Origin: Nitrospirota bacterium
GTDB lineage: Bacteria > Nitrospirota > Thermodesulfovibrionia > Thermodesulfovibrionales > Dissulfurispiraceae
Assembly (NCBI GenBank): GCA_963790025.1
Contig: CAWBMP010000002.1
Location: 352,001-416,000, forward strand
Direction of reading: 5' to 3'
Length of the DNA: 64,000 bases
Shown here: positions 14,068-53,513 of the stretch, piece after piece
Layout: each line of letters begins with the position of its first letter
Numbering within the stretch: position 1 is the stretch's first letter
Notes under the pieces: model-generated
Told to the model about the DNA's origin: nothing
Database searches by the model: none
What the model saw: only the letters and a program-made list of their open reading frames with translations
Translations under genes and position numbers: made by a program

Positions 14068-14082
14068 ATCTCCTCCTCCATT

Positions 14083-14195
14083 TCGCGTTCAGCGTGCTGC
14101 GTGCTTACGGCACCTACTGCTGGTTCAGCCTACAACGTCAAAAATATTAAATTTAATTTCATACGTACAACGCTGAATCCTGCACGCAGTATGTT
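14083..14195. repeat. Heptamer-arm imperfect palindrome (GCGTKCW)n ... inverse
   Basis: gcgttca gcgtgct gcgtgct ... aacgctg aatcctg cacgcag in the fusA-tuf spacer. Confidence 0.6.
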
Positions 14196-14198
14196 GTT

Positions 14199-36807: not shown

Positions 36808-37479
36808 TTACTTGACTTCTTCTTCGGGGTGTGTCATATGCCTTATCATTTTGCCAGCTGCAAGATAAATCGCCATCTCGGCAATATTGGTGGCATGGTC
36901 GGCGATACGCTCGAGATTCTGGGCCACAAAGCTTATTTTCATTGCCCTTGTTACTGTCGTTGGGTCCTTTACCATAAAAAGAATTAATTCATTTTGAACT
37001 TCATTCCTCAGATCATCGATTTCATCGTCTCTCATGATAACATCCATCGCCAATTTTTTGTCCCCTTTTACAAAGGCGTCAAGTGCGTCTCTTGTCATTC
37101 CCTGGGCAATCTCTCTCATTCTCGGGACATCGATATACGGTTTCAGCAGGGGCTCTTCATTGAGTTGAAGGGCCCTATGAGCAATATTGACTGCGAGATC
37201 ACCCATCCTTTCGAGGTCGGTGGTGATCTTCATTGCCGTTGTTATAAATCTCAAGTCGCTTGCCTTAGGCTGCATAAGTGCAATGAGGCGAATGCACTCC
37301 TCATCTATTTGGATATCAAACATGTTGATCTGATGATCTTTCTCGATTATACTTTGGGCGAGATCATTGTCCCTGTCGACGAGCGCCCTCACCGAATCCT
37401 TGATGGCATTTTCAACCATGGACCCCATCATAAGGACCTTTTCTTTAAGCCGCAGCAATTCCTCATCGAAAATGGACAT
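36808..37479 (-). CDS. phoU: Phosphate signalling protein PhoU
   Basis: QPKASDLR, DLERMGD, LERIADHATNIAE. Confidence 0.97.
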   Translation of the reverse strand: MSIFDEELLRLKEKVLMMGSMVENAIKDSVRALVDRDNDLAQSIIEKDHQINMFDIQIDEECIRLIALMQPKASDLRFITTAMKITTDLERMGDLAVNIAHRALQLNEEPLLKPYIDVPRMREIAQGMTRDALDAFVKGDKKLAMDVIMRDDEIDDLRNEVQNELILFMVKDPTTVTRAMKISFVAQNLERIADHATNIAEMAIYLAAGKMIRHMTHPEEEVK

Positions 37480-38243
37480 TATCCAAACCTCCCCGTAATA
37501 TAATCTTCCGTAAGCTTTTCAGACGGAGCAGTGAACATTTTATCGGTCCTGTCAAATTCAATCAGCTCTCCGAGCATCATAAACCCCGTCCAGTCGGATA
37601 TCCGGGCCGCCTGCTGCATATTGTGCGTTACGATTATTATTGTAACATTATTTTTCAACTGAACTATGAGCTCTTCTATCTTACTGGTTGAGATAGGATC
37701 CAGGGCGGAAGTCGGCTCATCGAAAAGAAGTACGTGCGGCTCAACCGCCAGCGCCCTGGCAATAACAAGCCGCTGCTGCTGTCCGCCCGATAAATCATAT
37801 GCGCTAACATTAAGTTTGTCCCTTACTTCATCCCAAAGGGCAGCATTTTTTAGGGCCTTTTCAACTCGTTCCGACAGTTCGGAACGATTAGTGACGCCCT
37901 TTAATTTAAGCCCGTACGCAATATTATCGAATATAGTCATCGGGAAGGGGGTAGGCTTCTGAAAGACCATGCCGATTCTGCTCCTCAGCTTGATGACATC
38001 GACGTCATTCGAAAGAATATTCTTTCCTTCGAAGACTATCTGTCCTTCGTATCTGTTCTTGGGATAAAGGTCATGCATACGGTTAAAACACCTGAGCAGA
38101 GTGGTTTTCCCGCAACCGGAAGGTCCGATCAAGGCAGTCACCCCCATTTTATGGGCGGACAGGCTGACCTGTTTTAATGAATGGATAGTACCCGAATAAT
38201 AAAAATTCAGCTCTTTTGCTTCTATTTCGACCATATCGGACAC
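37479..38243 (-). CDS. pstB: Phosphate ABC transporter ATPase (start uncertain)
   Basis: [38 protein letters not shown]. Confidence 0.97.
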
Positions 38244-39082
38244 TATTTGTACCTCCATTTAATAATGAGTCTGCCTGCAATGGTAATCAGGAGAATGAAC
38301 ACCGTTATGATAAAAGCGGCGCCCCATGCCTGCGTGTGCCATTCTTCATAGGGGCCCATTGCGTACTGGAATATTGAAGCAGTTAATGACGCGACCGACC
38401 CCCGCATGTCGGTGGAAAAGAACGAATTGTTAAACGAAGTAAAAAGCAGCGGGGCTGTCTCACCGGCGACCCTGGCAATAGAAAGCAATATTCCGGTGAA
38501 AATGCCTGTGGCAGCGCCTCTGTAAACAACATCTATTATTACCTTGTAGTATGGCGCTCCAAGCGCAAAGGCCGCCTCCCTCAGCGTCCAGGGCACAAGG
38601 GAAAGCATGTCTTCAGTCGTCCTCAAAACAACGGGGATCATGATAACCGCCAGGGCGACTGCTCCGGCCCAGCCGTTGAAATGCCCGACAGGCTTTACCA
38701 TTATTGCATAGATAAAAGTGCCTACTACTATGGAAGGTACGCTTACCATGATATCAGAAAGTATGCTTATGGACCGGGCTATCCTAGTTCCCCTTGCATA
38801 TTCGGCAAGAAATGTGCCTCCCAGAACACCTATGGGCACACCTATTAATGTAGCAAAGCTGGTTATCATCAACTGCCCTACGAAGGCATTGCGAAGACCG
38901 CCGCCGGCGACACCCACGGGAGTCGGATCATTAAGGAATAAGCTCGGAGTAAGGGCGCCTATGCCGTGCACGAGTACATCGCCGAGAATAAAGACAAGCC
39001 AGAACATTCCTGACAGGGCGGCAAGAGTGCTCAATGCGAGGGCAGCAAGGCTTTCGGCTTTTCTTTTCTGATCGATGTTCAT
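38243..39082 (-). CDS. pstA: Phosphate ABC transporter permease PstA
   Basis: [25 protein letters not shown]. Confidence 0.96.
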
Positions 39083-40020
39083 CGGGAATATCTTCTCTCA
39101 GCCTTGAGCAGGAAAAACTTTGCTATTGCAAGAACGATAAAACTCATTACGAAAAGGACAAGGGCCAGATAAAAAAGTGACGATAGATAGAGGTCTTTAT
39201 CGGCCTCGGTAAATTCATTGGCAAGCGTTACGGTAATGGTTGCAGCGGCATCAAAGAGCGACGTGGTAATCTGGTGATTATTTCCAAGGACAAAAGCCAC
39301 TGCCATAGTCTCGCCGAGCGCCCTGCCAAGGGATAGAACGACTCCTCCGTAAACACCGAGTTTTGAGTAAGGCAGTACAACGTTTTTCACAACCTCCCAT
39401 CTAGTTGCGCCGATGGCGTAAGCGGATTCCTTCACCACGGAAGGCGTCAAATTGAAAGAATCCCTTGAAATACTCGCAGTGAACGGTATAATCATAATGC
39501 TCAGGATGACACTCGCCGTCAGGATGTCGATGCCCATTGGGGTGCCGCTGAACAATATTCCGACTACGGGCAATGCGCCGAAGGTCTTCTGAAGAGCGGG
39601 TTCTATATACTTTGACATGATGGGGGCCAGTGTGAACAGCCCCCACATGCCGTAAATGATACTGGGTATTGCCGCCAGCAGTTCGATAGCGATCCCGATT
39701 GGTCCCTTCATGAAATTAGGAGCTATTTCAGTGACGAAAATAGCGATCCCGATAGCAAGCGGAATTGCAATTATGAGAGCGAGCACTGTTGTAACAAAAG
39801 TCCCGAAAATGGTAGTCGCAGCCCCGAAAGATTCTTTTACAGGGTCCCAATCGGTGGATTTCAGGAAATTTATGACGCCGAAATGGCCGATAGCCAGCGA
39901 CGATTCCCGTATAAGCACGTATAAAATGCCCAAAATCAAAAGAACTACCACTGAAGATGCTAATGCGGTGACAATAGAAAATGCGAAATCAGCAGAGTTC
40001 TTCTTATCAAGAATTGGCAA
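39079..40020 (-). CDS. pstC: Phosphate ABC transporter permease PstC
   Basis: ELLAAIPSIIYGMWG, GRALGETMAV. Confidence 0.96.
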   Translation of the reverse strand: MPILDKKNSADFAFSIVTALASSVVVLLILGILYVLIRESSLAIGHFGVINFLKSTDWDPVKESFGAATTIFGTFVTTVLALIIAIPLAIGIAIFVTEIAPNFMKGPIGIAIELLAAIPSIIYGMWGLFTLAPIMSKYIEPALQKTFGALPVVGILFSGTPMGIDILTASVILSIMIIPFTASISRDSFNLTPSVVKESAYAIGATRWEVVKNVVLPYSKLGVYGGVVLSLGRALGETMAVAFVLGNNHQITTSLFDAAATITVTLANEFTEADKDLYLSSLFYLALVLFVMSFIVLAIAKFFLLKAERRYSR

Positions 40021-40050
40021 ACAGCTTGCTCCTTTTTGAAGAAATTAATC

Positions 40051-40125
40051 AAATGTTGAACGTTAAATGTTGCCGAGCACTCAAAGCGCCTGTGATTAGC
40101 GTGTTGAGCGCTCGGCAACATTTAA
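40051..40125. repeat. Long hairpin with heptamer (RAAYGTT) units between pstS and pstC
   Basis: 16-bp perfect stem TTAAATGTTGCCGAGC (40063-40078)/GCTCGGCAACATTTAA (40110-40125). Confidence 0.8.
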
Positions 40126-40140
40126 TATCAAGAAGCAACT

Positions 40141-40178
40141 AAAAGGGTCAGGATATATAATACATGCCTGACCCTTTT
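40141..40178 (-). terminator. Hairpin after pstS (terminator or mRNA stabiliser)
   Basis: AAAAGGGTCAGG/CCTGACCCTTTT inverted repeat. Confidence 0.75.
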
Positions 40179-40191
40179 AATTCAATTAACT

Positions 40192-41202
40192 TTAATACAC
40201 GCCATACTCTTTCCAGTAGGCCCTGACCTTGTTCTTTAGGCCTTTGGGAAGCGGCACGTAAATCAGCTCTTTTGCTTTTGCATCCCCGTTCTTGAATGCC
40301 CAATCATAAAACTTAACGGCTTTCATAGCGCTTTCCTTTTTATCCTTGGCAAGCAGAATAAAGGTTGCGCCTGCGATTGGCCAGGAGTTCTTGCCAGGGG
40401 CATTAACGAGCCAGAGATCAAAGTCTTTTTTCGGATCGAAATTCGCTGAGGCAGCAGCATCTTCAAAGGCTTCGAAGCTCGGCTGGATAACTTTTCCTGC
40501 CGAATTTTTCAGCGCTGTATACGCCAGCTTGTTCTGTATTGCATAGGCAAATTCGACGTAGCCGATAGAATTCGGGGCCTGTTTTACATAGTTGGACACT
40601 CCCTCATTCCCCTTACCGCCTATACCGATTGGAAACTTTACAGATGTGCCTGCTCCAACTTTTGTTTTCCACGCAGGACACACATCGCTGAGATAATTGG
40701 TAAATATCGCGGTGGTACCGGAGCCGTCAGACCTATGGACAATGGAAATTTCACTGTGCGGCAATTGAACAGTCGGATTTAGGGACTTGATCTTTGCATC
40801 ATCCCAGAATTTTATCTCGCCAAGATATGCTTTGCATATGGAATCGGAGTCAAGTTTTAATTCGCCGGCTTTTAAGCCAGGCATGCTGACCACTAGAACG
40901 ACCCCTCCCATGACGGCAGGGAACTGGATCAAACCGTCTTTCTTGAGTTGTTCAGAGCTGAGAGGTGCATCGGATGCTCCGAAATCGACCGTCCGGGCTG
41001 AAATCTGCCTGATACCTCCGCCTGAGCCGATGGACTGGTAATTGATCCTGACGCCCGTAGCCTTCTGATAATCATAAGCCCAGGACTGATATACCGGGGC
41101 AGGGAATGATGCACCTGCGCCATTTATTATGTCCTCTGCATGCACCATGCTAAATGACAAGATACAAGCCACTGCTAAAATCAAACTTATTACTGATTTC
41201 AT
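40192..41202 (-). CDS. pstS: Phosphate-binding protein PstS
   Basis: GAGASFP, YQSIGSGGG, VDFGASD, RSDGSGTT, GNEGV. Confidence 0.97.
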   Translation of the reverse strand: MKSVISLILAVACILSFSMVHAEDIINGAGASFPAPVYQSWAYDYQKATGVRINYQSIGSGGGIRQISARTVDFGASDAPLSSEQLKKDGLIQFPAVMGGVVLVVSMPGLKAGELKLDSDSICKAYLGEIKFWDDAKIKSLNPTVQLPHSEISIVHRSDGSGTTAIFTNYLSDVCPAWKTKVGAGTSVKFPIGIGGKGNEGVSNYVKQAPNSIGYVEFAYAIQNKLAYTALKNSAGKVIQPSFEAFEDAAASANFDPKKDFDLWLVNAPGKNSWPIAGATFILLAKDKKESAMKAVKFYDWAFKNGDAKAKELIYVPLPKGLKNKVRAYWKEYGVY

Positions 41203-41240
41203 AGTTATTCCTCCTTTTGTTAGAGCAACTTGGTTATCAT

Positions 41241-41295
41241 AGCATAAGACTTTTTTGTTACGGGAATGTTACAGGAGAGTTAAAAATATATTACA
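41241..41295 (-). promoter_or_regulatory. Pho-box-like array plus -10, pstS
   Basis: Plus-strand hexamers gttacg/gttaca/gttaaa/attaca at 41257, 41268, 41279, 41290; TATGCT 10 nt downstream. Confidence 0.85.
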
Positions 41296-41396
41296 ATCAC
41301 CTCCCGTTATTCATTTTATTCATAAATACAACAGCTTGCTCCATGAGGTAGAGGGCTAAAGGCTAATGTCTAACGAGACGTGCGCCCTTTGTGGCC

Positions 41397-41585
41397 TTAA
41401 AAAAAAGGACATTTCTTATGCTGTTTACTCTTACAATATTCTTCGAGCTGAAACAGACTTGGCACATATGGTGCCTCGCCTGCCTGGCAAGTATATATAA
41501 GCCATTTGGTAAGATAGGGGCATTTCAGGCGCTTGGATTCAACTTTTACAAATCCGTCTTCCCTTCTTGCCGTGCCGCTTATCAT
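41397..41585 (-). CDS. 4-Cys microprotein, copy 1
   Basis: CPYL..C-x17-C-x7-CPFF; paralogous to 50929 and 51281. Confidence 0.7.
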   Translation of the reverse strand: MISGTARREDGFVKVESKRLKCPYLTKWLIYTCQAGEAPYVPSLFQLEEYCKSKQHKKCPFF

Positions 41586-41591
41586 GTGACG

Positions 41592-41846
41592 TTACCCCAT
41601 TCCGATTGCAGCGAGAATTGCCTTGTTAGTTACCATTTCTTTCACATAGTTCTCTATATTAACGAGAGCGGGATCATAGGTGATAACAAGGCTGCCGGTA
41701 ACCGGATTGGCACGGATATCTTTAATACCGTCAGGGACAGGAAGAGCCGACAATTCTTTCAATGTTGCAATAGAAAGTTTCCTGATTATCGGCACCTGCA
41801 ACCTGATGCGTCCAGGAACATGGTGTACCACCTTATAGTCGATCAT
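41592..41846 (-). CDS. Stand-alone HMA_2-domain protein
   Basis: HHVPGRIRL...GI..I.ANPVTGSLVITYD. Confidence 0.85.
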   Translation of the reverse strand: MIDYKVVHHVPGRIRLQVPIIRKLSIATLKELSALPVPDGIKDIRANPVTGSLVITYDPALVNIENYVKEMVTNKAILAAIGMG

Positions 41847-41872
41847 CCACGCACCCCTTGACTTTCTTATTC

Positions 41873-41928
41873 ATTAAATCATAACTATTCTTACAAAATG
41901 ATGAATTTGTTGTTACAACTTAATGACA
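41873..41928 (-). promoter_or_regulatory. Pho-box-like array
   Basis: cttaca/atgaat/gttaca/atgaca at 41890, 41901, 41912, 41923; TTTAAT 11 nt downstream. Confidence 0.65.
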
Positions 41929-42060
41929 TTTCAGCAGAGATACGCGATGCAAGGTGATAGGCCAAAGGTAAAAGGTCAAAGAATTTATAACAGCCTATCT
42001 ATAAATGGGTAGGCGGTGTATAGGCCTAACGGCCTGAACAATTCATTTTTCGATAATGCG

Positions 42061-43254
42061 TTACTGTGATTTAAGCAGGTGGGCTTTATCGGTAATTTCC
42101 CATGGCAGCCCTATATCCATCCTGCCGACGTGTCCATAAGCTGCAAGCTTCCTGTAGAAACCTCCTTTAATCGCTGAAGGGAGGCGTCTCAGCTGAAACT
42201 GCCTTACAATACCTGCAAGCCTGAAATCGAAGTTTTTATCAACCAGGTCGGCAATAACAGTATCGGACAGTCTGCCGGTGCCGAACGTCTCTACCTGAAT
42301 GCTCACCGGATGGGCAAGTCCTATCGAATAACTGAGCTGGATTTCGCACTCGTCAGCAAGACCGGCCGCAACCACATTCTTTGCGGCGTAACGCGCCGCA
42401 TATGCGCCGATCCGGTCAATTCTCATCGGGTCCTTGCCGCTGAGCGCTGCACCGCTGTGGCGAGAGTACTCCCCATATGTATCAATAGCATTCTTTCTCC
42501 CGGTAAGCCCCGAATGGATTGACGGGCCTCCGGTAATAAACTGGCCGTCGGGATTGACGAAAATCCTGGTATCCTTATCCGGCTTCACGGCCTCATCATG
42601 GAATACATTGTCGATAATGGCCTCCCGTACATCACTGGTTAACTGTTTCAGATCAGGACCTGTGCCCTTCCTCTGGCTCGCAATTACCGTTATGCTGTGT
42701 ATCCTGTGAGGACGACGGTCTTTGAACTCCACACCCACCTGGGTTTTGCCGTCCTGGGAAAGATACGGAAGTATCTTCTGAAGTCTCGCTGAAGTGAGCC
42801 GTCTTGCGAGTTTGTGCGCCAGCCATATTGGAAGCGGCATAAATGCGGGAGTTTGCTTACAGGCGAAACCAAAAACCGTAACCTGATTTTTTACCGGGAC
42901 ACTGTCTATTTCACTCTCCGTCATCTCCCGTTCATCAAAACAGCAATCCGGGTCGCGGGGCGATTCTTTGAGGCTTGTTAAAATACTGCACGTTTTCCCG
43001 TTGAATTCCTGCCGTTCATAGCCAATCTGGCTTATCACCTGGCGGGCTATATAGGGGAAGTCCACATAAGCATCTGAGGAGTATCTGGCCGCAATAAAGA
43101 GAATGGAAGTCGAGACGGCGCATTCTGCTATAACGCGCGAGTACGGGTCCTGCTGGAGAAAGTGGTCTACGATAGCATCGCTTATCTGGTCACATAGTTT
43201 ATCTGGGTGCCCCTCGGTCACAGATTCGGATGTAAACATGAAATCTTTTTTCAT
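42061..43254 (-). CDS. Divergent S-adenosylmethionine synthetase (MetK) paralogue
   Basis: FTSESVTEGHPDK, GLTGRK, SGKDP, AAYGH present; GAGDQG signature replaced by PVKNQV. Confidence 0.9.
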   Translation of the reverse strand: MKKDFMFTSESVTEGHPDKLCDQISDAIVDHFLQQDPYSRVIAECAVSTSILFIAARYSSDAYVDFPYIARQVISQIGYERQEFNGKTCSILTSLKESPRDPDCCFDEREMTESEIDSVPVKNQVTVFGFACKQTPAFMPLPIWLAHKLARRLTSARLQKILPYLSQDGKTQVGVEFKDRRPHRIHSITVIASQRKGTGPDLKQLTSDVREAIIDNVFHDEAVKPDKDTRIFVNPDGQFITGGPSIHSGLTGRKNAIDTYGEYSRHSGAALSGKDPMRIDRIGAYAARYAAKNVVAAGLADECEIQLSYSIGLAHPVSIQVETFGTGRLSDTVIADLVDKNFDFRLAGIVRQFQLRRLPSAIKGGFYRKLAAYGHVGRMDIGLPWEITDKAHLLKSQ

Positions 43255-46200
43255 ATCGCTTCACCTCGCATAGTTTTCTTTGTCGCTTCATTGACAACCA
43301 GAGGGAGTACCGCGCTTCCACCGATTACAAGGGCATCGGTAAGATTTATCATCGTAGTTCCGAGCAGTCCTCTTAGTCCGGGCACCGCTATTGTCAGGGC
43401 CTGCAGCGCAAAAGACCCCCCAAGGGCAACGTCCAGATATCTGTTCGCGGGCAGCCGCTCCTTGTCGAACATACTCAGTCTCTCAGAACGGCAGCTTATG
43501 GCATGCAGAAGCTGACTTGAGGTGAGACTCATAAAGGCCAGGGTCCCTGCCTGAGCTCCAGGACCGTACCGCATGACGCCATATCCGTAAGCTCCGAGCG
43601 CAGTCGCACTCATCATCGCAGATTCGAAACCGATCCTTTTAAAGTCACTGCTCATGATAATAGGATGGTTAGGATTACGCGGAGGCTTGCTTAGGACGTC
43701 GGGTTCAGGGAGTTCAAGTGCCAATGCGAGCCCGGGGAATATATCGGATATGAGGTTGATCCAGAGCAATTGCATCGCACTAAGCGGCTGTCCAAGACCG
43801 GCGGCAGTGGCGGTGAACATTACCATAATTTCGCTCAGGTTTGTCGACAGGATGAAGTGCAACGATTTTCTGATATTGTTATAAATGGTGCGTCCATGAC
43901 TTACCGCGATAATCATGGTCTCAAGATTGTCGTCTTCGAGCACAATATCCGCCACCTCACGAGCGACGTCTGTGCCGGTGTGGCCCATTGCAATTCCTAT
44001 GTCGGCTGCCTTGAGCGCAGGGCCGTCATTAATACCGTCACCGGTCATGGCGACAACTTTCCCTGTGCTCTGCAGGGCCTGCACAATTTGAAGCTTATGC
44101 GCCGGACTCACGCGGGAAAAGACATGGACCCGCCCGGCAAGCGCTTTCATGACATCGGGTTCAATATCCGTAAGGTGCGTCGAATCAAGAATTTCGAGTT
44201 GTTCTCCGTTGCTCAGGTCCAGCTCGTTTCCGATGGCATAGGCCGTCGGCGTCTGGTCCCCGGTTATCATAACTGTTTCTATGCCGGCTGAGTGGAAAAC
44301 GCCGATCAGTTCCTTGACCCCCCTTCTCGTAGGGTCTGCCATACCTACAAGACCGAGCCAGACGAAACCGCTGGTGATGTCGCAGGCACTGCTTCCGTTT
44401 TCTATATGTTGATACGCGATGCCGAGGATCCTGAGTGCTTCACCGGCCATTCGTTCATTTTCCGTTTCCATTGCGAGCCTGTCATCAACTGAAATCGGGA
44501 ACTTTTCGCCGTCCTTTATATACAAGTCGCACATTTCCAGCACTTCTGTAGGGCTGCCTTTCAGTGCTATGATCTTGCCCTCGGGGCCGAAGTCATGTTG
44601 GGTGGCCATATAATTGCGGTTTTCAGCACGGTAACATATTTTCAGTAACGGGTACATCTTTCTGATTTGAATGATGTCGACGCCTGCACAAATCGCCATA
44701 TGCATCAGGGCATTCTCGGTTGGTGATCCCCGCAGCACATATCTTCCTTCTCCATTTTCATAACAACTGCTTTCTGCAGGCGCCTCACCGGCATGTTCTT
44801 TTACGCTGATTTCAGATTCGTTGCATAGCACAGATATATGAATAAGCCTCATGAACTCGTCCGAGGCATAGGGGTTAACTGTCTCAACCCCGACCATAAA
44901 TTTGCCGTCCCTTGCCTTTATTCTCTTCATTCCTGTATAAATTGCAACAACCGACATCCTGTTCAATGTTATAGTGCCGGTCTTGTCCATACATATAGTT
45001 TGCACAGAGCCGAGAGTTTCGACTGCGTTGAGATGACGGATAAGGACTTTATGCCGTCTCATATTCCTGATTCCGAGAGCGAGGGTCGTGGTGGCAACGG
45101 TCGGCAGCCCTTCGGGGACCGCTGCTACAGCAAGAGAAATCGAGCTTTTAAGCATCTGGATGAAACCGTATCCCCTGAGCAGCCCTATAAGGAAAACAAC
45201 ACCGCAGACAGCCCCGCTGATCAACACAAGCTGTGTACCCATTTTCTTGAGCTGCCGCTCCATAGGTGTCTCGGGAGACTCCGCAGCTCCCACGAGTTCC
45301 TGTATTTTTCCTATCTCAGTAAACTTTCCTGTGGCCACGACCACTGCAAGGCCCTGTCCCCCCGTAACCAGGGTGCCCATATAGGCCATGTTGACCCTAT
45401 CAGCAAGCGGCACATTGTCTTCGTCTATGCTCTCTGTAGTCTTCACGACCGGCAGGCTCTCGCCGGTAAGCGCAGATTCATCGACGCTCAGATAGGTCGC
45501 TTCAATCAGCCTGCTGTCGGCGGCAATATAGCTGCCGGGCCTGAACACCAGCATATCGCCAACGACCACCTCCTCGGCAGGGATATCTTTAAAAATACCG
45601 TCCCTTATGACAAGCGAGGATGGCCTTACAAGACTTTTGAGCGAGTTAATGGTTTTTTCCGCCTGGCTCTCGGTGACATAGCCGATGACCGCATTGATGA
45701 CCACTACTCCGGCAATAACCACAGCATCAGCGACGCCGCCAGTCACTATCGAGAGACCGGCTGCAACACCCAGCAGGGCATTCGGGATCGAATTGAATTG
45801 ATCGATAAGAATACTGAATGCTGAACGTGGAACTGATTCAGGGAGCAAATTGGGGCCGAATTTCTTTAGTCTGGCTTGAGCGCTATCAGTTGAAAGACCG
45901 GCAGTTGCCGAGGAACCCAAACGCTTAAGGACTGCGGATGGTGCTTCGGTATGCCATGCCTCTACCGTCTGGTCTTCCGCGTGTTCAACAAGTCTTCTTA
46001 ATTTTCCCCTGCTTTTTACTGGGACAGAAGACCGGACAACATTGGCCTTGCCGCTTTCTACAACAGGGAAAGGGTACCCGGGCGCAGTCTCTGACTGAGT
46101 AACTGTATTTGCAGCCTGCTGAAAGTCGCCGCCTTGATATTCGCGGACGATATCATGAATAAGATGCGCTATGGCATGAGGGGTATTGAAGGAATTGAAA

Positions 46201-46364
46201 TAGACGAGAACACTGCCGGTCAATATGTTTATTGAGACGTCACTAATCCCCTCTAAGCCAGAAAGGCCTGATTCAAGGTGTTTTTTTAGAGATTCCGAAC
46301 GACGAAGCCCCTCTACCTTGTATCGGACCCTTCCCGGCACTGCCGCATGTACTGTCTCGACCAC
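43251..46364 (-). CDS. P-type ATPase (P2A, Ca2+-type motifs) with an N-terminal HMA_2 domain
   Basis: TGES, VAAVPEGLP, DKTGT, MITGD, GDGIND, M5 STNLSE, M6 WINLISD; N-terminal VPGRVR..NILTGSVLV. Confidence 0.93.
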   Translation of the reverse strand: MVETVHAAVPGRVRYKVEGLRRSESLKKHLESGLSGLEGISDVSINILTGSVLVYFNSFNTPHAIAHLIHDIVREYQGGDFQQAANTVTQSETAPGYPFPVVESGKANVVRSSVPVKSRGKLRRLVEHAEDQTVEAWHTEAPSAVLKRLGSSATAGLSTDSAQARLKKFGPNLLPESVPRSAFSILIDQFNSIPNALLGVAAGLSIVTGGVADAVVIAGVVVINAVIGYVTESQAEKTINSLKSLVRPSSLVIRDGIFKDIPAEEVVVGDMLVFRPGSYIAADSRLIEATYLSVDESALTGESLPVVKTTESIDEDNVPLADRVNMAYMGTLVTGGQGLAVVVATGKFTEIGKIQELVGAAESPETPMERQLKKMGTQLVLISGAVCGVVFLIGLLRGYGFIQMLKSSISLAVAAVPEGLPTVATTTLALGIRNMRRHKVLIRHLNAVETLGSVQTICMDKTGTITLNRMSVVAIYTGMKRIKARDGKFMVGVETVNPYASDEFMRLIHISVLCNESEISVKEHAGEAPAESSCYENGEGRYVLRGSPTENALMHMAICAGVDIIQIRKMYPLLKICYRAENRNYMATQHDFGPEGKIIALKGSPTEVLEMCDLYIKDGEKFPISVDDRLAMETENERMAGEALRILGIAYQHIENGSSACDITSGFVWLGLVGMADPTRRGVKELIGVFHSAGIETVMITGDQTPTAYAIGNELDLSNGEQLEILDSTHLTDIEPDVMKALAGRVHVFSRVSPAHKLQIVQALQSTGKVVAMTGDGINDGPALKAADIGIAMGHTGTDVAREVADIVLEDDNLETMIIAVSHGRTIYNNIRKSLHFILSTNLSEIMVMFTATAAGLGQPLSAMQLLWINLISDIFPGLALALELPEPDVLSKPPRNPNHPIIMSSDFKRIGFESAMMSATALGAYGYGVMRYGPGAQAGTLAFMSLTSSQLLHAISCRSERLSMFDKERLPANRYLDVALGGSFALQALTIAVPGLRGLLGTTMINLTDALVIGGSAVLPLVVNEATKKTMRGEAI

Positions 46365-46370
46365 GTAACT

Positions 46371-47039
46371 TTATTCTTCCCTTTTCGTTTTATGCTTTGT
46401 AGAAATTTCAGCCGGCCCGCTGGAAGAGGGTCCTGATGCAGACGAACGCGGCAGCGCGGAGCCGGCAATTTCCTTAACTCCGGAAACGACGCCGACCAGC
46501 ATGTCCTTTACAGCTCGCACTGCCGTATTCCCGATCGAGCCCGCGGCCTCTATTGCCCCGCCAACAGCGACAGTAGCGGCCTCTTCGACATTCCCACCTA
46601 CTTCTTTCGTAGCTTCAATTACACCGTCAACGGCCCTTCTCGCTACGAGTGCCACATCGGCACCGACTTCGGCAGCCCCCTTGACAGCGCCCTTAACGGT
46701 CTGCTCGGCAACTTTCATAACATCCCCGCCAACATCGCTGACGCCCATTACGATGCCCTTGGCAACGCTTTTGGTGCTCAGGATTAAGCCTGTGCCGACC
46801 TCTTCCGTAGCCTGAATTGCACCTTTTACCACATCTGCGGTAATAGTAACACCTTCATTAGCCACAGATGCAGTCGCTTTCAGGGTATTCGATACAGTAT
46901 TTCTGACAAGACTCACGATTTCCGCCTCGATTTCGTTTATCCCCTTCAGACTGCTTACAATCCCCTCTTTCACCTTTGTTCCGGCTGCGCCAATATATGC
47001 AGCCCCCTCTGAACCGACCTTCCCTTCGCTCTTAGCCAT
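46371..47039 (-). CDS. Ala/Val/Gly-rich protein with 22-residue amphipathic repeats
   Basis: GGAGG SD before ATG 47039; six or more tandem 22-mers. Confidence 0.85.
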   Translation of the reverse strand: MAKSEGKVGSEGAAYIGAAGTKVKEGIVSSLKGINEIEAEIVSLVRNTVSNTLKATASVANEGVTITADVVKGAIQATEEVGTGLILSTKSVAKGIVMGVSDVGGDVMKVAEQTVKGAVKGAAEVGADVALVARRAVDGVIEATKEVGGNVEEAATVAVGGAIEAAGSIGNTAVRAVKDMLVGVVSGVKEIAGSALPRSSASGPSSSGPAEISTKHKTKREE

Positions 47040-47123
47040 GATAATGCCCTCCATTTTTACACCTTTTAATTGTGTTGTTTTTAGCGTGCCGTAAAGTAGC
47101 GGCGTCACGGCGCATAGCTGCCG

Positions 47124-47609
47124 CTACTTTCTCTCCTCATCAGCGGCAGCAGGCAATGATTTCAGAAATACGTTTAATGCATACCAGAAGGCGGTATACC
47201 ACGCAGGAGCTGCAAAGTTTCCACTTGCAATTTCGTAAACACCGAACCCGACAAGAGTAACGAAAGCAACTCCGGGTACATCCACTTCGTTACCGGTAAA
47301 TTTTTTCACTTTTTTATCAAAGCCACTGAAAGCATTGACAATATTGGCGGACAGAGCTGTGGTCCGTGGCCCTTTTTTGAGCTTGAAAAGTGCCTTTCCC
47401 TCGGCAAATGCTGCAATGGCCTTTAAATCAGCAGTATGTATAAATAACAGACTGCCTGTCAGGGCATTTGCATGGACCTGCTCAACTCCCTCAAATTGCG
47501 CAAAGTGATCCTGCAAAGCAGAGAAGTAGGCGGCATCTCCTTTCCTTCCAGGCACTTTTACCCTGAATCTTCCAGGCGTTGCGTGGCTCAAAATGGCTTC
47601 AGGTATCAT
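47124..47609 (-). CDS. HMA_2-domain protein with a hydrophobic C-terminal segment
   Basis: HATPGRFRV...ANALTGSLLF; APAWYTAFWYA. Confidence 0.85.
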   Translation of the reverse strand: MIPEAILSHATPGRFRVKVPGRKGDAAYFSALQDHFAQFEGVEQVHANALTGSLLFIHTADLKAIAAFAEGKALFKLKKGPRTTALSANIVNAFSGFDKKVKKFTGNEVDVPGVAFVTLVGFGVYEIASGNFAAPAWYTAFWYALNVFLKSLPAAADEERK

Positions 47610-47896
47610 TAAGCTCCTGTTTTGTCCTCGGGGTTAATGCCGGTTGTTTCAGTATGAGATTCTGCCATTTCAGCCTTTACCTCCGCAACGATATCTTCCA
47701 TCATTTCCCCTGCTTCCGCGAAAGTCTCTCTGCTTTTTTCATAGAGTATAAGGCCGCCCTTTATTGCAGCTTTTGCAATCGGTTTTACGACTCCTGCAAT
47801 CGCAGGAATCACCTGCGGGGCAAATAGGGCCGCGCCAATACCTATAGCCAATCCTGTAAGGATATTACCTTTTAACCCATTTTCAAATAGTGCCAT
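47609..47896 (-). CDS. DUF5132-like protein
   Basis: GLAIGIGAALFAP..KPIAKAAIKGG..YEK..AEAGE..EDIVAE. Confidence 0.85.
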   Translation of the reverse strand: MALFENGLKGNILTGLAIGIGAALFAPQVIPAIAGVVKPIAKAAIKGGLILYEKSRETFAEAGEMMEDIVAEVKAEMAESHTETTGINPEDKTGA

Positions 47897-48063
47897 GGTT
47901 TCCTCCTTGTCGGTCTTTAAGTAAAGTGTATATTAATATGGGTTCAAAGTAAATGTAACCCAAACTTTTCATTACTTGCCTACTTTCAAGACAGGTAATC
48001 AGGAGACAGTTAAAGAATTCTTCACTGTTAAAACCTTTGCTGTGACATGTTAAAACCTTTGTC

Positions 48064-48091
48064 TTGACACTCTTCATTTTTCGGCTATACT
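48064..48091 (+). promoter_or_regulatory. Sigma70-type promoter
   Basis: TTGACA-16 nt-TATACT. Confidence 0.65.
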
Positions 48092-48093
48092 TT

Positions 48094-48125
48094 AATTGGA
48101 GCGTATATAAATTGGAGCGTATATA
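48094..48125 (+). repeat. Exact 16-bp tandem duplication
   Basis: AATTGGAGCGTATATA x2. Confidence 0.9.
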
Positions 48126-48144
48126 AAAAGGGAGGTGCATCGCT

Positions 48145-48306
48145 ATGCCTATTGAAGTGAGCGTCACAGAACGGGAACTGCTGAAGAAGATCCTCAATTC
48201 GTATCTTTCAGAGCTGAGACTTGAGATCGTCGAAACGAAACACGACAAATCGTCCCTCCATGAAGAAGAGAACCTCGTAAGAGGGCTGCTGCAAAAGGTA
48301 TCCTAA
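48145..48306 (+). CDS. 53-aa helical hypothetical protein (not in the ORF track)
   Basis: GGGAGGTG SD; MPIEVSVTERELLKKILNSYLSELRLEIVETKHDKSSLHEEENLVRGLLQKVS*. Confidence 0.8.
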   Translation: MPIEVSVTERELLKKILNSYLSELRLEIVETKHDKSSLHEEENLVRGLLQKVS

Positions 48307-48328
48307 CTGTTGTTATGCCTTGTTCCCC

Positions 48329-48370
48329 GCCGAAGCTACCCGCTCCACCCGGGTGGCTTCGGTCGATTTT
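48329..48370 (+). terminator. Intrinsic terminator
   Basis: CCGAAGCTACCC/GGGTGGCTTCGG stem with a short T tail. Confidence 0.65.
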
Positions 48371-48387
48371 AACAGCGTAATAGATTA

Positions 48388-48443
48388 TGTAACTTAAAAT
48401 TAATATTTCTGTAAAACTGCTTTAACCCTCTATCCTTTAAACT
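48388..48443 (+). promoter_or_regulatory. Pho-box-like array plus -10, olsB/olsA-like operon
   Basis: tgtaac/attaat/tgtaaa/tttaac at 48388, 48399, 48410, 48421; TAAACT 11 nt downstream. Confidence 0.75.
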
Positions 48444-48583
48444 ATACAAATTCACATCGTGACATCAGAAATAATGAATATCCAATTTTACTATGTTACC
48501 AAGCACTTAAAGCGTATATGGATAATGTATTGAGTGTCCTGCGACATGCAGCATTCAACATTTCCCATAGAGGAGGTGCATTT

Positions 48584-49378
48584 ATGGAACACACTCAATG
48601 TACGGTTCTGAGCATGCGCAACGGTAATTTTATTGTGAAACTTGCTGAATACCATGAGGAACTGGTTAAAGCACTCAGACTGCGTTTTGATGTATTCAAT
48701 AGAGAATTGAACGAGGGTCTTGACAGCTCTTATATGACCGGGATGGACCGGGACAGTTACGATGACTATTGCGACCATCTTATTGTAATCGATACAAGAT
48801 GTAACAAGGTTGTAGGCACCTATCGCCTCCTCCTTGGTTCGGTCGCAGAAAGCAATATCGGCTATTATTCGGAGGGTGAATTCGACATGACCGGCATCAA
48901 GGCTATAGGTGGAGAGAAACTTGAACTCGGCCGATCCTGCGTCCACAGTGATTACAGGAATGCAGGTGTCATCAACCTGCTTTGGGCCGGCATAGCGCGG
49001 TACGTGGAAATGTACGATGTACGCCATTTATTCGGCTGCGGCAGCCTGCACACCGATGACCCTGTTGAAGTAAGCATGGTATACTTTTATATGAACACGT
49101 TTCACCGCTCGGGCGCCGAATTTACGGTGTACCCCATGAAAAAGCTGCGCGGGGTCGGCTTATGCCCTATTGTGGACCAGAAAACCGCGTTCGATAAACT
49201 TCCCCCGCTTATTAAGGGATACCTGCGGCTCGGAGCACTTATATGCGGAGAGCCGGCCTACGACGACGTATTCGGCACTACCGATCTCTATCTGCTACTG
49301 GAAACCGAAAAGTTGATCTCCCGGTATAAAAGGAGGTTTTTCCAGGAGCCAAACGAGACGTTATGCCGGGCATCGTAA
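48584..49378 (+). CDS. GNAT N-acyltransferase, OlsB-like (amino-lipid synthesis)
   Basis: LRFDVF, D.YDDYCDHL, VVGTYRL, YSEGEFD, ELGRSCV, PPLIKGYLRLGA. Confidence 0.85.
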   Translation: MEHTQCTVLSMRNGNFIVKLAEYHEELVKALRLRFDVFNRELNEGLDSSYMTGMDRDSYDDYCDHLIVIDTRCNKVVGTYRLLLGSVAESNIGYYSEGEFDMTGIKAIGGEKLELGRSCVHSDYRNAGVINLLWAGIARYVEMYDVRHLFGCGSLHTDDPVEVSMVYFYMNTFHRSGAEFTVYPMKKLRGVGLCPIVDQKTAFDKLPPLIKGYLRLGALICGEPAYDDVFGTTDLYLLLETEKLISRYKRRFFQEPNETLCRAS

Positions 49379-50157
49379 AAATCCGAAAATTATTTCTCCT
49401 TCTTATAGTTAGCCTTTTCGTTTTTGTCTGTGGTATCCTGATCAAAGTCTTTCCCCTTGAACAGGGTCGAAAATTGAGTCTTCAGACACGCTTCATGCGG
49501 TTATGGGCACGGTCCGGCTGTTTCATCCTCGGCATCAATATTGCCTCCACCGGCTCATATAGAGCTGACGATGTTTTTTTTATCGTGAGCAATCATTGCA
49601 GCTATATCGATATACTTATTATCGGCAGTCTGATTCCATCCGTATTCGTTTCAAAAAGTGATGTGGCCTCATGGATATTCCTTGGGAGGATGGTAAAACT
49701 TGCCGGGACCATTTTTGTCAACCGGGAATCCAAAACAGCTTCGGTCAGAGCAATGGAGGCCATTAAGGAGCGACTTGCAAACGGCATCAATGTTGTGGTT
49801 TTTCCTGAAGGTACCACCAATAACGGACTTGCTATCAGAGATTTCAAGAGCACCTTTTTCAAGGCGCCCATCGACAGTAACGTGCCTGTTTTGCCTGTGA
49901 GCATTATTTATTCGCACATAGATCGAACTCCCGTGACACCCGGCACAATAGACGCCGTCGCCTGGCACTCAGACATGGAGTTTCTTTCTCATTTTTGGAA
50001 CCTTCTCGGTATCGGGAGGATTGACGCGCGTATTCATTTCAGTCCGCCCCTCTACCATTTTACCGAAAACAGAAAAATACTTTCTTCTTTTGTCTTTGAG
50101 AAAGTCAGAGATGGAATAGAAATTGGAAGATGTTTTAGAGAAGAAGATACTTGTTGA
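49363..50157 (+). CDS. PlsC/OlsA-like lysolipid acyltransferase
   Basis: NHCSYID (HX4D), FVSK, FPEGT; overlaps the upstream GNAT gene. Confidence 0.88.
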   Translation: MPGIVKIRKLFLLLIVSLFVFVCGILIKVFPLEQGRKLSLQTRFMRLWARSGCFILGINIASTGSYRADDVFFIVSNHCSYIDILIIGSLIPSVFVSKSDVASWIFLGRMVKLAGTIFVNRESKTASVRAMEAIKERLANGINVVVFPEGTTNNGLAIRDFKSTFFKAPIDSNVPVLPVSIIYSHIDRTPVTPGTIDAVAWHSDMEFLSHFWNLLGIGRIDARIHFSPPLYHFTENRKILSSFVFEKVRDGIEIGRCFREEDTC

Positions 50158-50206: not shown

Positions 50207-50578
50207 TTATATCAGGACAGCTAATATTGAGAGGGCCGAACCTTCCAATGCCTGCTGGACAAAGGCACCCAAAACCGCCCTGCCCACGATATGACCGGCT
50301 GTTTTAGCTGCTCCATGAATATACTGATCAGTGGTTGCCGCCTTTGTCGTATCGAAATAACCTTTTCTCTGCAATATATTGATAATATCGTTGTGGCCGG
50401 TCATTTTGGGGTTATAGTTTACCAGAAGACTACCGGTAGTAAGGTTAATATCGATTGTCGCAATACCCTGCAGCTGACTTAATGTCTTTTTTAACTCGTT
50501 AGCCACGTTTTCGTTCTTTTTTATTACAGGGCTTTTTATTCTGAGTCTTCCAGGCACATTATGAATGTAATAGCTCAC
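50207..50578 (-). CDS. HMA_2-domain protein
   Basis: HNVPGRLRI...INLTTGSLLVNY; AGGAGGAG SD. Confidence 0.85.
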   Translation of the reverse strand: MSYYIHNVPGRLRIKSPVIKKNENVANELKKTLSQLQGIATIDINLTTGSLLVNYNPKMTGHNDIINILQRKGYFDTTKAATTDQYIHGAAKTAGHIVGRAVLGAFVQQALEGSALSILAVLI

Positions 50579-50873
50579 TATCTCCTCCCTTCATGTCAAT
50601 TTTCGTGAATGTTTTACAATCTGGATATCCCGAACACCTGAACCGCAATATTTTTTCTTCCCTTTTATATAAATGCATCATTCTTCCGCAAACCGGGCAC
50701 AGAGGCCTGTTTTTTACTTCAAATCTTACGGCACCGGCGCTAAACTGCCTGCCGCATATAAGACATAGGAACCTCTGTTTTCCCTGCCACGTCTTACCAT
50801 ATTTATACACGGCATCCAACTTGCAGTGCGGGCATTTAGTTGTAAAGCTTTGTGTCACCGCATCTGCTGTCAT
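50559..50873 (-). CDS. Double zinc-ribbon protein (IS1 InsA-like ribbon + topoisomerase C4-like finger)
   Basis: CPHC..KYG...GKQRFLCLIC; CPVCG.MM..RFRCSGYPDC. Confidence 0.75.
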   Translation of the reverse strand: MTADAVTQSFTTKCPHCKLDAVYKYGKTWQGKQRFLCLICGRQFSAGAVRFEVKNRPLCPVCGRMMHLYKREEKILRFRCSGYPDCKTFTKIDMKGGDSELLHS

Positions 50874-50894
50874 GTAATATTTAATCAAATTATG

Positions 50895-51498: not shown

Positions 51499-52728
51499 CT
51501 AGGCGAATCGCCCCTTTATAGCATCGATAATTCTGTAACGCAACGACCAGAAACCGTTTTCGGGACATGGGAACAGCATCGAATCTTTGCCGATACTATA
51601 CCGGTTACCCCTCCATACAACAGTATTGCTGACAATCGGTACAGACCATATGAGCCCGATAACAAGGTCTTTAATCGGGGAGAGCAAATAAAGAAAAGGG
51701 TTATCCATTTCGGTTTCCGTCTTTCTGCCAATATAAAAGTCGCCTGCCACTTTAAGGAGGGAGGTGAGAATCGCAAAGGTCACCGTCAATTTGGAGCACT
51801 CCCAGAATACGATCGGTAACGATGACATGAACACAGGATTCCCAACTAATTCGAATATATATCTCACCCCTCCGATCTTCCACCTGATCTTACCCCATCT
51901 TGTGTGGCGGTTAAGGAATCGACTCATTCCCCAGTATTCATTCACGTTTTGCACCATGTACCTGGACAGCACCACTTTTTTGCCGCTTTTATGCATTCTT
52001 TCACCGATAACATAATCCTCGGCAAGAATATCTTTTACCGATCTGAGCCCGCCGATTGCTTCCAAATCCTTTTTTTTCATCAGCATGGACTTTCCTACCA
52101 CACAGGGCATTTTCAAAAATTTATCAAGAAAACACACGCTTCCCATAATAAAAGAATTAAGGTGGAGGTTTTCAAATACGGAACCCAGCGAACGGCCGCC
52201 GACACCTTTTATAATATTGCTTACTAATCCGACTTCATGGCCTGTTTCCGGCTGGCTGATATGACTGGTTATCTCCGTAAGATAATTTGAGTCAACCATT
52301 ACATTGCTGTCGCTGATAAGAATATACTCATACTTTGAAGCCTTGTAAGCTGGAAGAAGATTATTGACCTTGGGATTGAGGCCTATAGAGGAATCTTTTA
52401 CAATAATGGTGATGTCCTTGTCCTGGTTTTTTTCCTGTATTTTTTGTGCTATTTTGTATGCAGGATCATTATGGCTCTGAAGAGAGAATATAATCTCATA
52501 TTCAGGATAGTCCTGTGCGCAAAAGCTCAGGAGATTGTCAAATAGATTATCATCCAGGCCCTTAAGCGGCTTAAGTATCGAAATTGGAGGAAAAAGTCGG
52601 GGAAGGGCCCGTTGCCCTTCCCCGCAGTTACAGGGAGTGGAAAGATATGAGCGTACTGCCCATATTTGGAAGCCGTAAGCGACGAGACCTAAAAAAGTAA
52701 CAAATGCGAAGAACCAGAATATACCCAT
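51499..52728 (-). CDS. Ceramide glucosyltransferase/HpnI-like glycosyltransferase (GT21/GT2)
   Basis: N-terminal TM, PISILKPLKG, GLNPKVNNL, ISDSN, LAEDY, RxxRW. Confidence 0.88.
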   Translation of the reverse strand: MGIFWFFAFVTFLGLVAYGFQIWAVRSYLSTPCNCGEGQRALPRLFPPISILKPLKGLDDNLFDNLLSFCAQDYPEYEIIFSLQSHNDPAYKIAQKIQEKNQDKDITIIVKDSSIGLNPKVNNLLPAYKASKYEYILISDSNVMVDSNYLTEITSHISQPETGHEVGLVSNIIKGVGGRSLGSVFENLHLNSFIMGSVCFLDKFLKMPCVVGKSMLMKKKDLEAIGGLRSVKDILAEDYVIGERMHKSGKKVVLSRYMVQNVNEYWGMSRFLNRHTRWGKIRWKIGGVRYIFELVGNPVFMSSLPIVFWECSKLTVTFAILTSLLKVAGDFYIGRKTETEMDNPFLYLLSPIKDLVIGLIWSVPIVSNTVVWRGNRYSIGKDSMLFPCPENGFWSLRYRIIDAIKGRFA

Positions 52729-53440: not shown

Positions 53441-53447
53441 CACATAC

Positions 53448-53513
53448 ATACTATTATTTATTCGGTTACAGGATTATTAAGGGCTTATTAAGATTGTGTT
53501 ACGTTATGTTACG
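53448..53513 (-). promoter_or_regulatory. Pho-box-like array plus -10
   Basis: gttaca/attaag/attaag/gttacg at 53465, 53476, 53487, 53498; TAGTAT 11 nt downstream. Confidence 0.8.

Follow-up and report, generated by a model that had tools for sequence, protein, structure and literature searches.

Methionine adenosyltransferase (MAT, the product of metK; EC 2.5.1.6) has been called an evolutionarily unique family in a review (PMC1282579). MetK is treated as a family with one function, and annotation pipelines consequently name every member "methionine adenosyltransferase". In the Escherichia coli enzyme (EcMAT, mature numbering), the amino group of methionine is held by Asp238 and Glu55* and its carboxylate by Gln98* and Lys269*, and Ile102* touches the methionine side chain. 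The ribose hydroxyls are bound by Asp163 and Asp238, of which Asp238 contacts O3', Phe230 stacks on the adenine, and His14 is the proposed acid for cleavage of the C5'-O bond (PMC3853416, PMC1282579). The archaeal-type MAT of Thermococcus kodakarensis (TkMAT) provides a precedent for other residues holding the methionine carboxylate, and even there the equivalent of Asp238 is present (PMC3853416). For human MATa2, the residues Glu23, His29, Lys181, Lys265, Lys285, Lys289 and Asp291 are listed as "involved in the catalysis" (PMC6850014). Hydrolysis of tripolyphosphate (PPPi) by MetK itself is part of the reaction scheme in PMC3853416. Here, we analyzed a stretch of 64,000 nucleotides from a Nitrospirota bacterium of the Dissulfurispiraceae (GenBank assembly GCA_963790025.1, contig CAWBMP010000002.1, positions 352,001 to 416,000 of the forward strand; this whole stretch is called the window) and describe an HR-type MetK-like gene that lies directly behind a P-type ATPase gene. 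Judged from its sequence, the encoded protein belongs to a distinct, conserved family in which the triphosphate half of the MetK site is kept and the charge of the methionine half is reversed, and it is very probably not a synthetase of S-adenosylmethionine (SAM).

The closest described gene neighborhood is the calcyanin (ccyA) locus of Microcystis aeruginosa PCC 7806, where a Ca2+/H+ exchanger is surrounded by a pair of DUF5132 proteins and two CoBaHMA proteins, one bearing a DUF454-like helical hairpin and the other consisting of a single domain (bioRxiv 10.1101/2024.07.07.602159). The same preprint equates the CoBaHMA domain with Pfam HMA_2, describes calcyanin as a marker of intracellular amorphous Ca-carbonate (iACC) and reports that several genes of the PCC 7806 locus are co-expressed. 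According to texts citing Gaschignard et al. 2024 (Proteins), in which the CoBaHMA domain was defined, a regulatory role via anionic partners such as lipids has been proposed for CoBaHMA. The accessible portion of the preprint mentions neither a MetK-like gene nor a P-type ATPase for the ccyA neighborhood of PCC 7806, and the accessible portions of PMC8890360 and PMC11773610 link no MetK-like gene with such pumps. In the searchable literature we found no description of the HR-type MetK-like family; a mention in supplements is possible. The two genes at the center of this study are:

42061..43254, minus strand: HR-type MetK-like protein of 397 amino acids (aa), with the MAT fold, the triphosphate/Mg/K residues kept, and R57/H247/R278 replacing the methionine pocket
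43251..46364, minus strand: P2-type (Ca2+-ATPase-like) P-type ATPase of 1037 aa with an N-terminal CoBaHMA/HMA_2 domain (about residues 5-63), overlapping the MetK-like start as ATGA

The open reading frame (ORF) of the MetK-like protein (P0001) starts with ATG and has no internal stop. Its start and the stop of the ATPase gene overlap as ATGA at 43254-43251, and a Shine-Dalgarno-like GAGGTGA run lies just upstream, bearing out the first-pass annotation, which had described a full-length frame overlapping the ATPase stop. All three MAT domains were recovered end to end (Pfam E-values of 5e-36 for PF00438, 5.7e-35 for PF02772 and 4.3e-55 for PF02773). The protein scored 385.3 bits against the NCBIfam metK equivalog TIGR01034, where the cutoff is 309.4, and every source name on its close relatives reads "methionine adenosyltransferase" or "S-adenosylmethionine synthetase". 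The earlier expectation that automated annotation would simply call the gene metK was therefore correct. By sequence, the top solved relative is the L. plantarum MAT (7r3b, 344 bits). An AlphaFold2 model, built from an alignment of 45 family members, reached a mean predicted local distance difference test score (pLDDT) of 94.0 and a predicted template modeling score (pTM) of 0.92; confidence was lowest (77-87) at residues 241-270, which correspond to active-site-lining loops in MATs. The top Foldseek matches of this model in the PDB were MATs only, with template modeling (TM) scores of 0.87-0.96 and root-mean-square deviations of 1.4-3.3 Å. Because of the Pfam domains, the confidence of the model and these MAT-only matches, the predicted MAT fold of the window protein is not in doubt. 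A scan of 41100-48600 for promoters and terminators gave counts no higher than in shuffles, and no canonical metK was found within the 64-kb window.

We then compared the protein with E. coli K-12 MetK (taken from NC_000913.3), to which it is 44% identical in a MAFFT alignment; residue numbers of MetK include Met1 from here on. Kept in the window protein are H15 (H16), D17 (D18), K18, E43 (E44), D164 (D168), K166 (K170), F231 (F239), R245/K246 (R253/K254), K266 (K274) and D272 (D280). The triphosphate/Mg2+/K+ set (His14, Asp16, Glu42, Arg244, Lys245, Lys265 and Asp271 in mature numbering) is complete; the individual roles of these kept residues for Mg2+, K+ and phosphate are partly presumed from the structural literature on the E. 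coli enzyme. Like canonical MetKs such as the E. coli enzyme and 7r3b, the protein thus combines the three-domain fold (TM 0.89-0.96) with the His/Asp/Glu/Arg/Lys/Lys/Asp triphosphate-metal set and the dimer-interface-type motifs GLTGRK and SGKD. Among the MATa2 residues listed above, all are present except the equivalent of Lys289, which is Arg.

Unlike in canonical MetK, all four methionine contacts are replaced, by R57, S98, H247 and R278. E56 has become R57 (GGEI to AARY, with A-R for G55-E56), D239 has become H247 (GDCG to IHSG), and K270 has become R278 (KVDR to RIDR, with R-I for K270-V). The fourth contact, Q99, aligns with S98 in MAFFT and with a Glu in the register of the first-pass annotation, so that the identity of the replacing residue is ambiguous and the loss of Gln holds in both registers. 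S100 and I103 are changed to P99 and P102, the GAGDQG signature (G116-G121) reads PVKNQV, including D119 to N123, G254 is Glu, S274 is Ile, and HGGGAFSGKD has become HSGAALSGKD. A 7-residue insertion ahead of the AAYGH motif (LPSAIKG in the window protein) is peculiar to the HR-type family, and the gating-loop region is longer than in canonical MetK. On the adenosine side, D168 and F239 are kept and S100, D239 and GAGDQG are replaced as described. Alignment to E. coli MetK thus upheld three statements made from the DNA alone: the ATP/Mg/K residues are kept, the four L-Met ligands are changed, and GAGDQG has turned into PVKNQV.

The pattern is strictly conserved, in keeping with purifying selection, among close relatives, defined here as the 120 nearest database proteins with 73-100% identity to the window protein. 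R57, N123, H247 and R278 are present in 120/120 of them, as are H16, D18, E44, D168, K254, K274 and D280, and K170 and F239 are each found in 119/120. Position 98 is variable (Leu in 85, Ser in 20, Met in six and Ala in three). The names attached to these proteins point to metagenome-assembled genomes (MAGs) of Nitrospirota, Thermodesulfovibrionales and Dissulfurispiraceae, with one row labeled "wastewater metagenome".

At a larger scale, 18,380 MetK relatives were found among 1.84 billion cluster representatives, and among the best 150 a group in which His replaces D239 and Arg replaces K270 stands apart from the canonical E/D/K type. In a FastTree phylogeny of 106 full-length rows, the 18 His/Arg sequences form one clade together with variants carrying SHH and DNR (local support 99). 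We also scanned one genome per GTDB species for loci matching the peptide patterns GHPDKLCD and LSGK[DG]PxR[IV]D and analyzed the best 80 of at least 597 loci. These comprise 63 loci of the His/Arg type, 13 canonical MetKs, two fragments and two without an ORF match; these loci, like the best 150 representatives, were picked for their similarity to the query and are not a random sample. When the five trait columns were removed, an IQ-TREE analysis (quick search, LG+G4, 124 rows) placed 74 His/Arg sequences and the SHH variant in one clade, with a Shimodaira-Hasegawa-like approximate likelihood ratio (SH-aLRT) of 78 and the DNR variant as sister. The idea that the R/H/R substitutions define a clade is hence supported by the close relatives as well as by the trees. 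Six other representatives, P0173, P0268, P0224, P0156, P0193 and P0240, have non-canonical residues at 56/239/270 (QSQ, TSR, NYK, EKK, EEK and K-K) and fall outside the His/Arg clade; they may represent additional divergent branches of the MetK fold.

Comparison of the 74 members with 82 canonical sequences, the latter defined by E56, D239 and K270 (100% by construction), revealed where the family departs from MetK. D239 is His and K270 is Arg in all members, and E56 is replaced by Arg in 81% and by His in 14%. G118 is Arg or Lys in 53%, and D119 is Asn in 49%, His in 15% and Asp in 14%, with Glu also seen. Other canonical-invariant positions that have changed are G55, Q99, S100 (mostly Pro), I103, G116, G121, K166 (Lys in 64%), Q189, H190, F231 (Phe in 41%), G254, G259, G261, V271 and S274; all remaining canonical-invariant positions are kept. 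In an alignment of 45 diverse members (A4; mean column identity 59%), D18, H247, G249, T251-K254 and S272-K274 do not vary at all, and conservation reaches 90% or more at H16, E44, D168, R278 and D280. Scores against TIGR01034 separate the two groups, with 260-402 bits in 14/14 family members and 584-667 bits in 8/8 canonical MetKs, and five of the 14 family members lie below the cutoff. These comparisons argue that the substitutions are a conserved trait of the clade and not drift.

Carrier taxa were taken from deposited record titles and NCBI lineages. The family occurs in 18 Thermodesulfobacteriota, 13 Pseudomonadota (alpha and gamma, among them Methylococcaceae and Methylocystis), eight Cyanobacteriota (Chlorogloeopsis fritschii PCC 6912, Rivularia and Crocosphaera among them) and seven Nitrospirota, with few or single carriers among Acidobacteriota, Binatota and "Deltaproteobacteria" MAGs, and spans about seven phyla. 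Methylocystis sp. L43 and Chlorogloeopsis are cultured carriers. At 71% identity, the Chlorogloeopsis homolog is far closer to the window protein than any canonical MetK is (44-50%), so that the gene has moved between phyla.

The second trait of the family is its neighbor. An automatic rule placed a same-strand gene for a P-type ATPase of about 1000-1070 aa directly ahead of the MetK-like gene at 56 of the 63 family loci, and inspection of coordinates gave the same adjacency in L032, L049, L054, L064 and L065. The remaining loci, L053 and L060, start inside the MetK-like gene and have no upstream DNA, so that the pump is adjacent in 61/61 evaluable loci. The exact four-base overlap of both genes is present in 23 of the 56 loci that passed the rule. 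By contrast, no pump gene adjoins metK at any of the 13 canonical loci; in L070 a P-type ATPase-like ORF lies 3 kb off. Pairwise identities of pump and MetK-like protein are strongly correlated over 29 loci (r=0.91; 0/2000 permutations as high), a correlation to which shared ancestry contributes and which shows co-inheritance, not contact. Functional coupling of the MetK-like protein to the pump is, by our estimate, highly likely.

The pump itself looks active and P2-type. Among 49 full-length pumps, DKTGT and GDGxND are present in 49, PEGL in 48 and TGES in 45, and the CoBaHMA signature H..GR.R is found at the N-terminus of 48, the exception being cut by a contig end. The Pfam HMA_2 model matched six of ten pumps scanned (E up to 1e-4; window, L012, L018, L024, L033 and L051, not L022, L040, L067 and L071). 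The closest solved pumps are human SPCA1 (8iww, 465 bits), Listeria LMCA1 (6zhf, 449 bits) and SERCA1a (404 bits), aligned over residues 134-1034. With these the window pump shares DKTGT, TGES, PEGL, GDGxND and the acidic/amide residues of transmembrane helices (TM) 4-6; unlike in them, its N-terminus is extended by about 135 aa that comprise the CoBaHMA domain and a linker. We know of no soluble MetK-fold partner of SPCA1, LMCA1 or SERCA1a. The TM4-6 residues E418, N842, E845, N870 and D874 are invariant in 30 aligned pumps and correspond to what we take to be the Ca2+-binding positions of SERCA. The window pump stays below all NCBIfam Ca-ATPase equivalog cutoffs (606 vs 798 bits for the PMR1 type), and Ca2+ is the probable transported ion.

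In a few cases, pump and MetK-like part were found in a single ORF, namely L049 8303-10957 (Richelia MAG), P0391 (947 aa), P0392 (Richelia, 790 aa) and P0436 (1090 aa). As natural fusions these were rejected: in the domain listing, P0391, P0392 and P0436 show no C-terminal membrane domain of the ATPase, two of them also lack the MetK N-terminal domain, and the MetK-like part of the L049 ORF is N-terminally truncated. All four look like the outcome of in-frame deletion, with the two genes decaying together. The apparent long ORFs of L032, L064 and L065 were likewise discarded as fusions and represent overlapping frames in GC-rich DNA. In L054 and L063, both long-read MAG contigs, pump and MetK-like gene are each split into several ORFs, which may reflect frameshift errors or pseudogenization of the whole unit. 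Among plasmids, the PLSDB matches listed (tblastn and blastn) contained canonical metK only and no pump-MetK-like cassette; one record in the 60-80% identity band lies outside the listed rows.

Pump and MetK-like gene are embedded in a run of minus-strand genes in the order DUF5132, CoBaHMA with hydrophobic tail, 245-aa repeat protein, pump, MetK-like, 84-aa HMA_2 and pstSCAB-phoU. The further features of this region are:

47609..47896, minus strand: DUF5132 protein of 95 aa, first gene of the co-directional run
47124..47609, minus strand: HMA_2 (CoBaHMA) protein of 161 aa (match at residues 8-146) with a hydrophobic C-terminal part
46371..47108, minus strand: Gly/Ala/Val-rich repeat protein of 245 aa between the CoBaHMA membrane protein and the pump, with no Pfam or NCBIfam family
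41592..41846, minus strand: single-domain CoBaHMA (HMA_2) protein of 84 aa, 214 bp downstream of the MetK-like stop
36808..41202, minus strand: pstS-pstC-pstA-pstB-phoU operon for high-affinity phosphate uptake, directly downstream of the module
50207..50888, minus strand: accessory pair of a 123-aa CoBaHMA protein (50207-50578) overlapping a 109-aa four-Cys zinc-ribbon protein (50559-50888)

DUF5132 genes are present at 46 of the 63 family loci and at 33 of the 37 that have at least 5 kb of upstream and 3 kb of downstream sequence. For small CoBaHMA proteins, the counts are 45/63 and, with adequate flanks, 30/37. Both are absent from the 13 canonical loci. The co-occurrence that the first-pass annotation had proposed to test thus holds, with the HMA_2-ATPase at every evaluable locus and with DUF5132 at most loci. 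We provisionally define the conserved module as a DUF5132 protein, a CoBaHMA membrane protein, the CoBaHMA-ATPase and the MetK-like protein. Compared with the ccyA locus of PCC 7806 as far as it is described in the preprint, the window module has the same set of small proteins round a cation transporter. In PCC 7806, however, where calcyanin is the marker, the transporter is a CAX-type Ca2+/H+ exchanger, whereas here it is a CoBaHMA-fused P2-type ATPase with its MetK-like partner. C. fritschii PCC 6912 has both ccyA, according to the accessible literature, and the pump/MetK-like module (L012, on chromosome NZ_CP170746.1).

Phosphate uptake genes are a further, less frequent neighbor. Both the window and six of the 63 family loci (L005, L008, L011, L017, L047 and L056) have pst genes no more than 10 kb from the MetK-like gene, as against none of the 13 canonical loci; their orientations, arrangements and lineages differ. 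Gene context hints that the module is tied to the handling of divalent cations and phosphate.

How are these data best explained? The reading we prefer, to which we give about an even chance, is that of a neofunctionalized MetK-fold protein that would bind and hydrolyze triphosphate or (poly)phosphate at the pump and so link cation sequestration to phosphate handling. Because the Mg2+/K+-triphosphate half of the MetK site is kept, Mg-ATP or PPPi would still be bound and would probably be cleaved. The methionine/ribose half would have been rebuilt as a cationic pocket (R57, K122, H247 and R278) for an anionic ligand, which we infer to be most plausibly of the phosphate type; the earlier hint at a possibly anionic acceptor agrees with the cationic nature of the new pocket residues. 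Translationally coupled to the CoBaHMA P2-type pump and presumably made stoichiometrically with it, the MetK-like protein would serve as its cytoplasmic partner inside the DUF5132/CoBaHMA module, where sequestration of the cation, probably Ca2+, would be linked to phosphate handling. Several observations weigh against this proposal or blunt it. The node that unites the His/Arg family is only moderately supported once the five trait columns are removed. The adenosine side is unevenly kept, with Lys at K166 in 64% and Phe at F231 in 41% of the 74 members, so that the first-pass description of an intact ATP site holds for the window protein and its close clade and fails for the family as a whole, where S100 is also mostly Pro. 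H15, the proposed acid, is Asn in four members. The association with pst genes is limited to six loci and the window, and some of these loci are mutually related. The assignment of Ca2+ rests on similarity and on the binding-site residues of SERCA. Finally, the family-wide pattern suits a triphosphate-only activity and equally a non-catalytic ligand sensor, and His at H15 in the other locus rows, together with F239, D168 and K170 in 119-120/120 close relatives, would also suit continued adenosyl transfer.

Such continued adenosyl transfer, in which ATP is used, PPPi is released and an anionic nucleophile in the R57/H247/R278 pocket receives the adenosyl group to give a 5'-substituted adenosine other than SAM, is an alternative that we consider unlikely and yet worth taking seriously. 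The acid His (H16), the adenine-stacking F239, the ribose contact D168 and K170 are what such an enzyme should keep; H16 is also conserved to at least 90% in the 45 diverse members, and a pure triphosphatase would have no obvious need of the His for C5'-O cleavage (role as given in PMC3853416). A literature search for mutational data on MetK residues in relation to tripolyphosphatase activity gave nothing usable. The three new basic residues, 81-100% conserved, also look like a specific co-substrate site. Across the family, however, the adenosine contacts erode, not only at F231 and K166 but also at S100 and at D119 (Asn, His, Asp or Glu); D239, which also contacts ribose O3', is gone in 74/74; and four members have Asn at H15. 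Moreover, no neighboring gene hints at use of an adenosylated product, the partners being a cation pump and small membrane proteins. Rather improbable, in our view, is a regulatory subunit with no or slow catalysis, a MetK-derived sensor of ATP, PPPi, pyrophosphate (PPi) or polyphosphate (polyP) that gates or tethers the CoBaHMA-ATPase. It would account well for the strict gene adjacency and translational coupling, for the co-evolution of pump and partner and for the variation of several substrate-side residues, and the family-own insertion ahead of AAYGH could be a docking surface. Yet pseudoenzymes usually drop metal and catalytic residues, whereas here D18, R253, K254 and K274 are invariant, conservation across phyla stays at 90% or above for H16, E44, R278 and D280, and the changes are confined to the substrate side. 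Nor did we find a full-length natural pump-MetK-like fusion, the long forms P0391, P0392 and P0436 looking like deletions.

That the protein is an ordinary, if divergent, SAM synthetase which binds methionine by other residues, as archaeal MATs partly do, appears very unlikely. In its favor are the TIGR01034 score above the equivalog cutoff (385 vs 309 bits) and the archaeal MATs, which hold the methionine carboxylate by His/Asn and not by Gln/Lys (PMC3853416); in addition, the 64-kb window contains no second metK. Against this, both acidic ligands of the methionine amino group have become basic, a reversal of charge, and the Asp for ribose O3' and the methionine amino group that archaeal MAT retains is His in 74/74 members of the HR-type family. 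TIGR01034 scores lie 180-400 bits under those of canonical MetKs. A pump cassette spread over about seven phyla, with 71% identity to a cyanobacterial protein, is unlike a housekeeping metK, and such a context occurs at 0/13 canonical loci. Least credible of all is a decaying metK pseudogene or an artifact of assembly or annotation. Broken relatives do exist, with frameshifts in both genes in L054 and L063 and the in-frame deletion joining remnants in L049 (Richelia), but the window gene is a full-length intact frame, the new residues are invariant in 120 relatives at 73-100% identity, and the predicted fold is of high confidence. Decay, where present, affects the two genes at once, which is what a single functional unit would lead one to expect. 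The statement that the protein is repurposed and not decaying therefore appears well founded, given the conserved clade, the linkage to the pump, the kept triphosphate and metal residues and the cationic new pocket.

Our preferred reading, a phosphate-directed MetK-fold partner of the pump, can be taken further. With its kept triphosphate site and new cationic pocket, the MetK-derived enzyme might make or trim PPPi, PPi or polyP at a CoBaHMA-tagged Ca2+ pump, and the pumped Ca2+ might be captured in Ca-(poly)phosphate or carbonate inclusions or held there in an amorphous state; we regard this extension as speculative and improbable. If true, the MetK scaffold would have acquired a new reaction, and no soluble enzyme partner of a P-type ATPase would have been known before. 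The protein would then carry out the cytoplasmic phosphate chemistry of a system by which bacteria sequester cations, one that is widespread and has so far escaped description. For annotation, the HR-type family appears to be misnamed in many genomes of Nitrospirota, Thermodesulfobacteriota, Cyanobacteriota, Alpha- and Gammaproteobacteria (including methanotrophs), Acidobacteriota and Binatota, and metabolic reconstructions that take an HR-type gene for metK may be wrong. The pairing with the pump offers a handle on the role of CoBaHMA/DUF5132 proteins beside Ca transporters in carbonate-forming cyanobacteria, on the ion moved by the uncharacterized CoBaHMA-ATPase family, and on whether the MetK scaffold supports chemistry besides SAM synthesis.

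The four members with Asn for the His of GHPD (L035, L037, L038 and L052) come from Syntrophobacteraceae-type MAGs and also have Glu for D164. This subgroup suggests that the chemistry is not uniform across the family.

Other genes of the module are less widely shared. The 245-aa repeat protein is encoded at 21/63 family loci, in rows that include Nitrospirota, Thermodesulfobacteriota, "Deltaproteobacteria", Binatia and Pseudomonadota (L018), and its Atlas neighbors are unnamed clusters only, from Thermodesulfobacteriota and Nitrospirota. The 109-aa zinc-ribbon protein of the accessory pair contains four Cys pairs, and its N-terminus resembles IS1/IS1595 transposases. It is found at 12/63 family loci and, in the rows read, mostly has the 123-aa CoBaHMA protein as its neighbor and is transcribed toward the MetK-like gene.

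Individual loci carry additional genes for cation transport. In L051 (Ca. Methylumidiphilus), a Na/Ca exchanger gene (11289-12419) directly follows the MetK-like gene. The module of L024 (Rivularia) is accompanied by MgtC and a second P-type ATPase (3991-5253 and 11503-14244), and that of L071 (Methylocystis) by MgtE (12219-13232).

Ornithine lipids, which are free of phosphorus, are made by OlsB and OlsA. Flanking the module and divergent from it, the window encodes an overlapping plus-strand pair (48518-49378 and 49363-50157) resembling these proteins, with 182 bits for OlsB (cutoff 320) and 156 bits for OlsA (cutoff 300); the pair probably serves the synthesis of a phosphorus-free aminolipid. 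It is not conserved at related loci, where the two genes were found at one and zero loci, respectively. Further along, on the minus strand, lie genes for an HpnI-like family-21 glycosyltransferase (51499-52728; 237 bits, cutoff 310) and a PHP-domain metallohydrolase (52751-53449), which are possibly further membrane-lipid remodeling genes.

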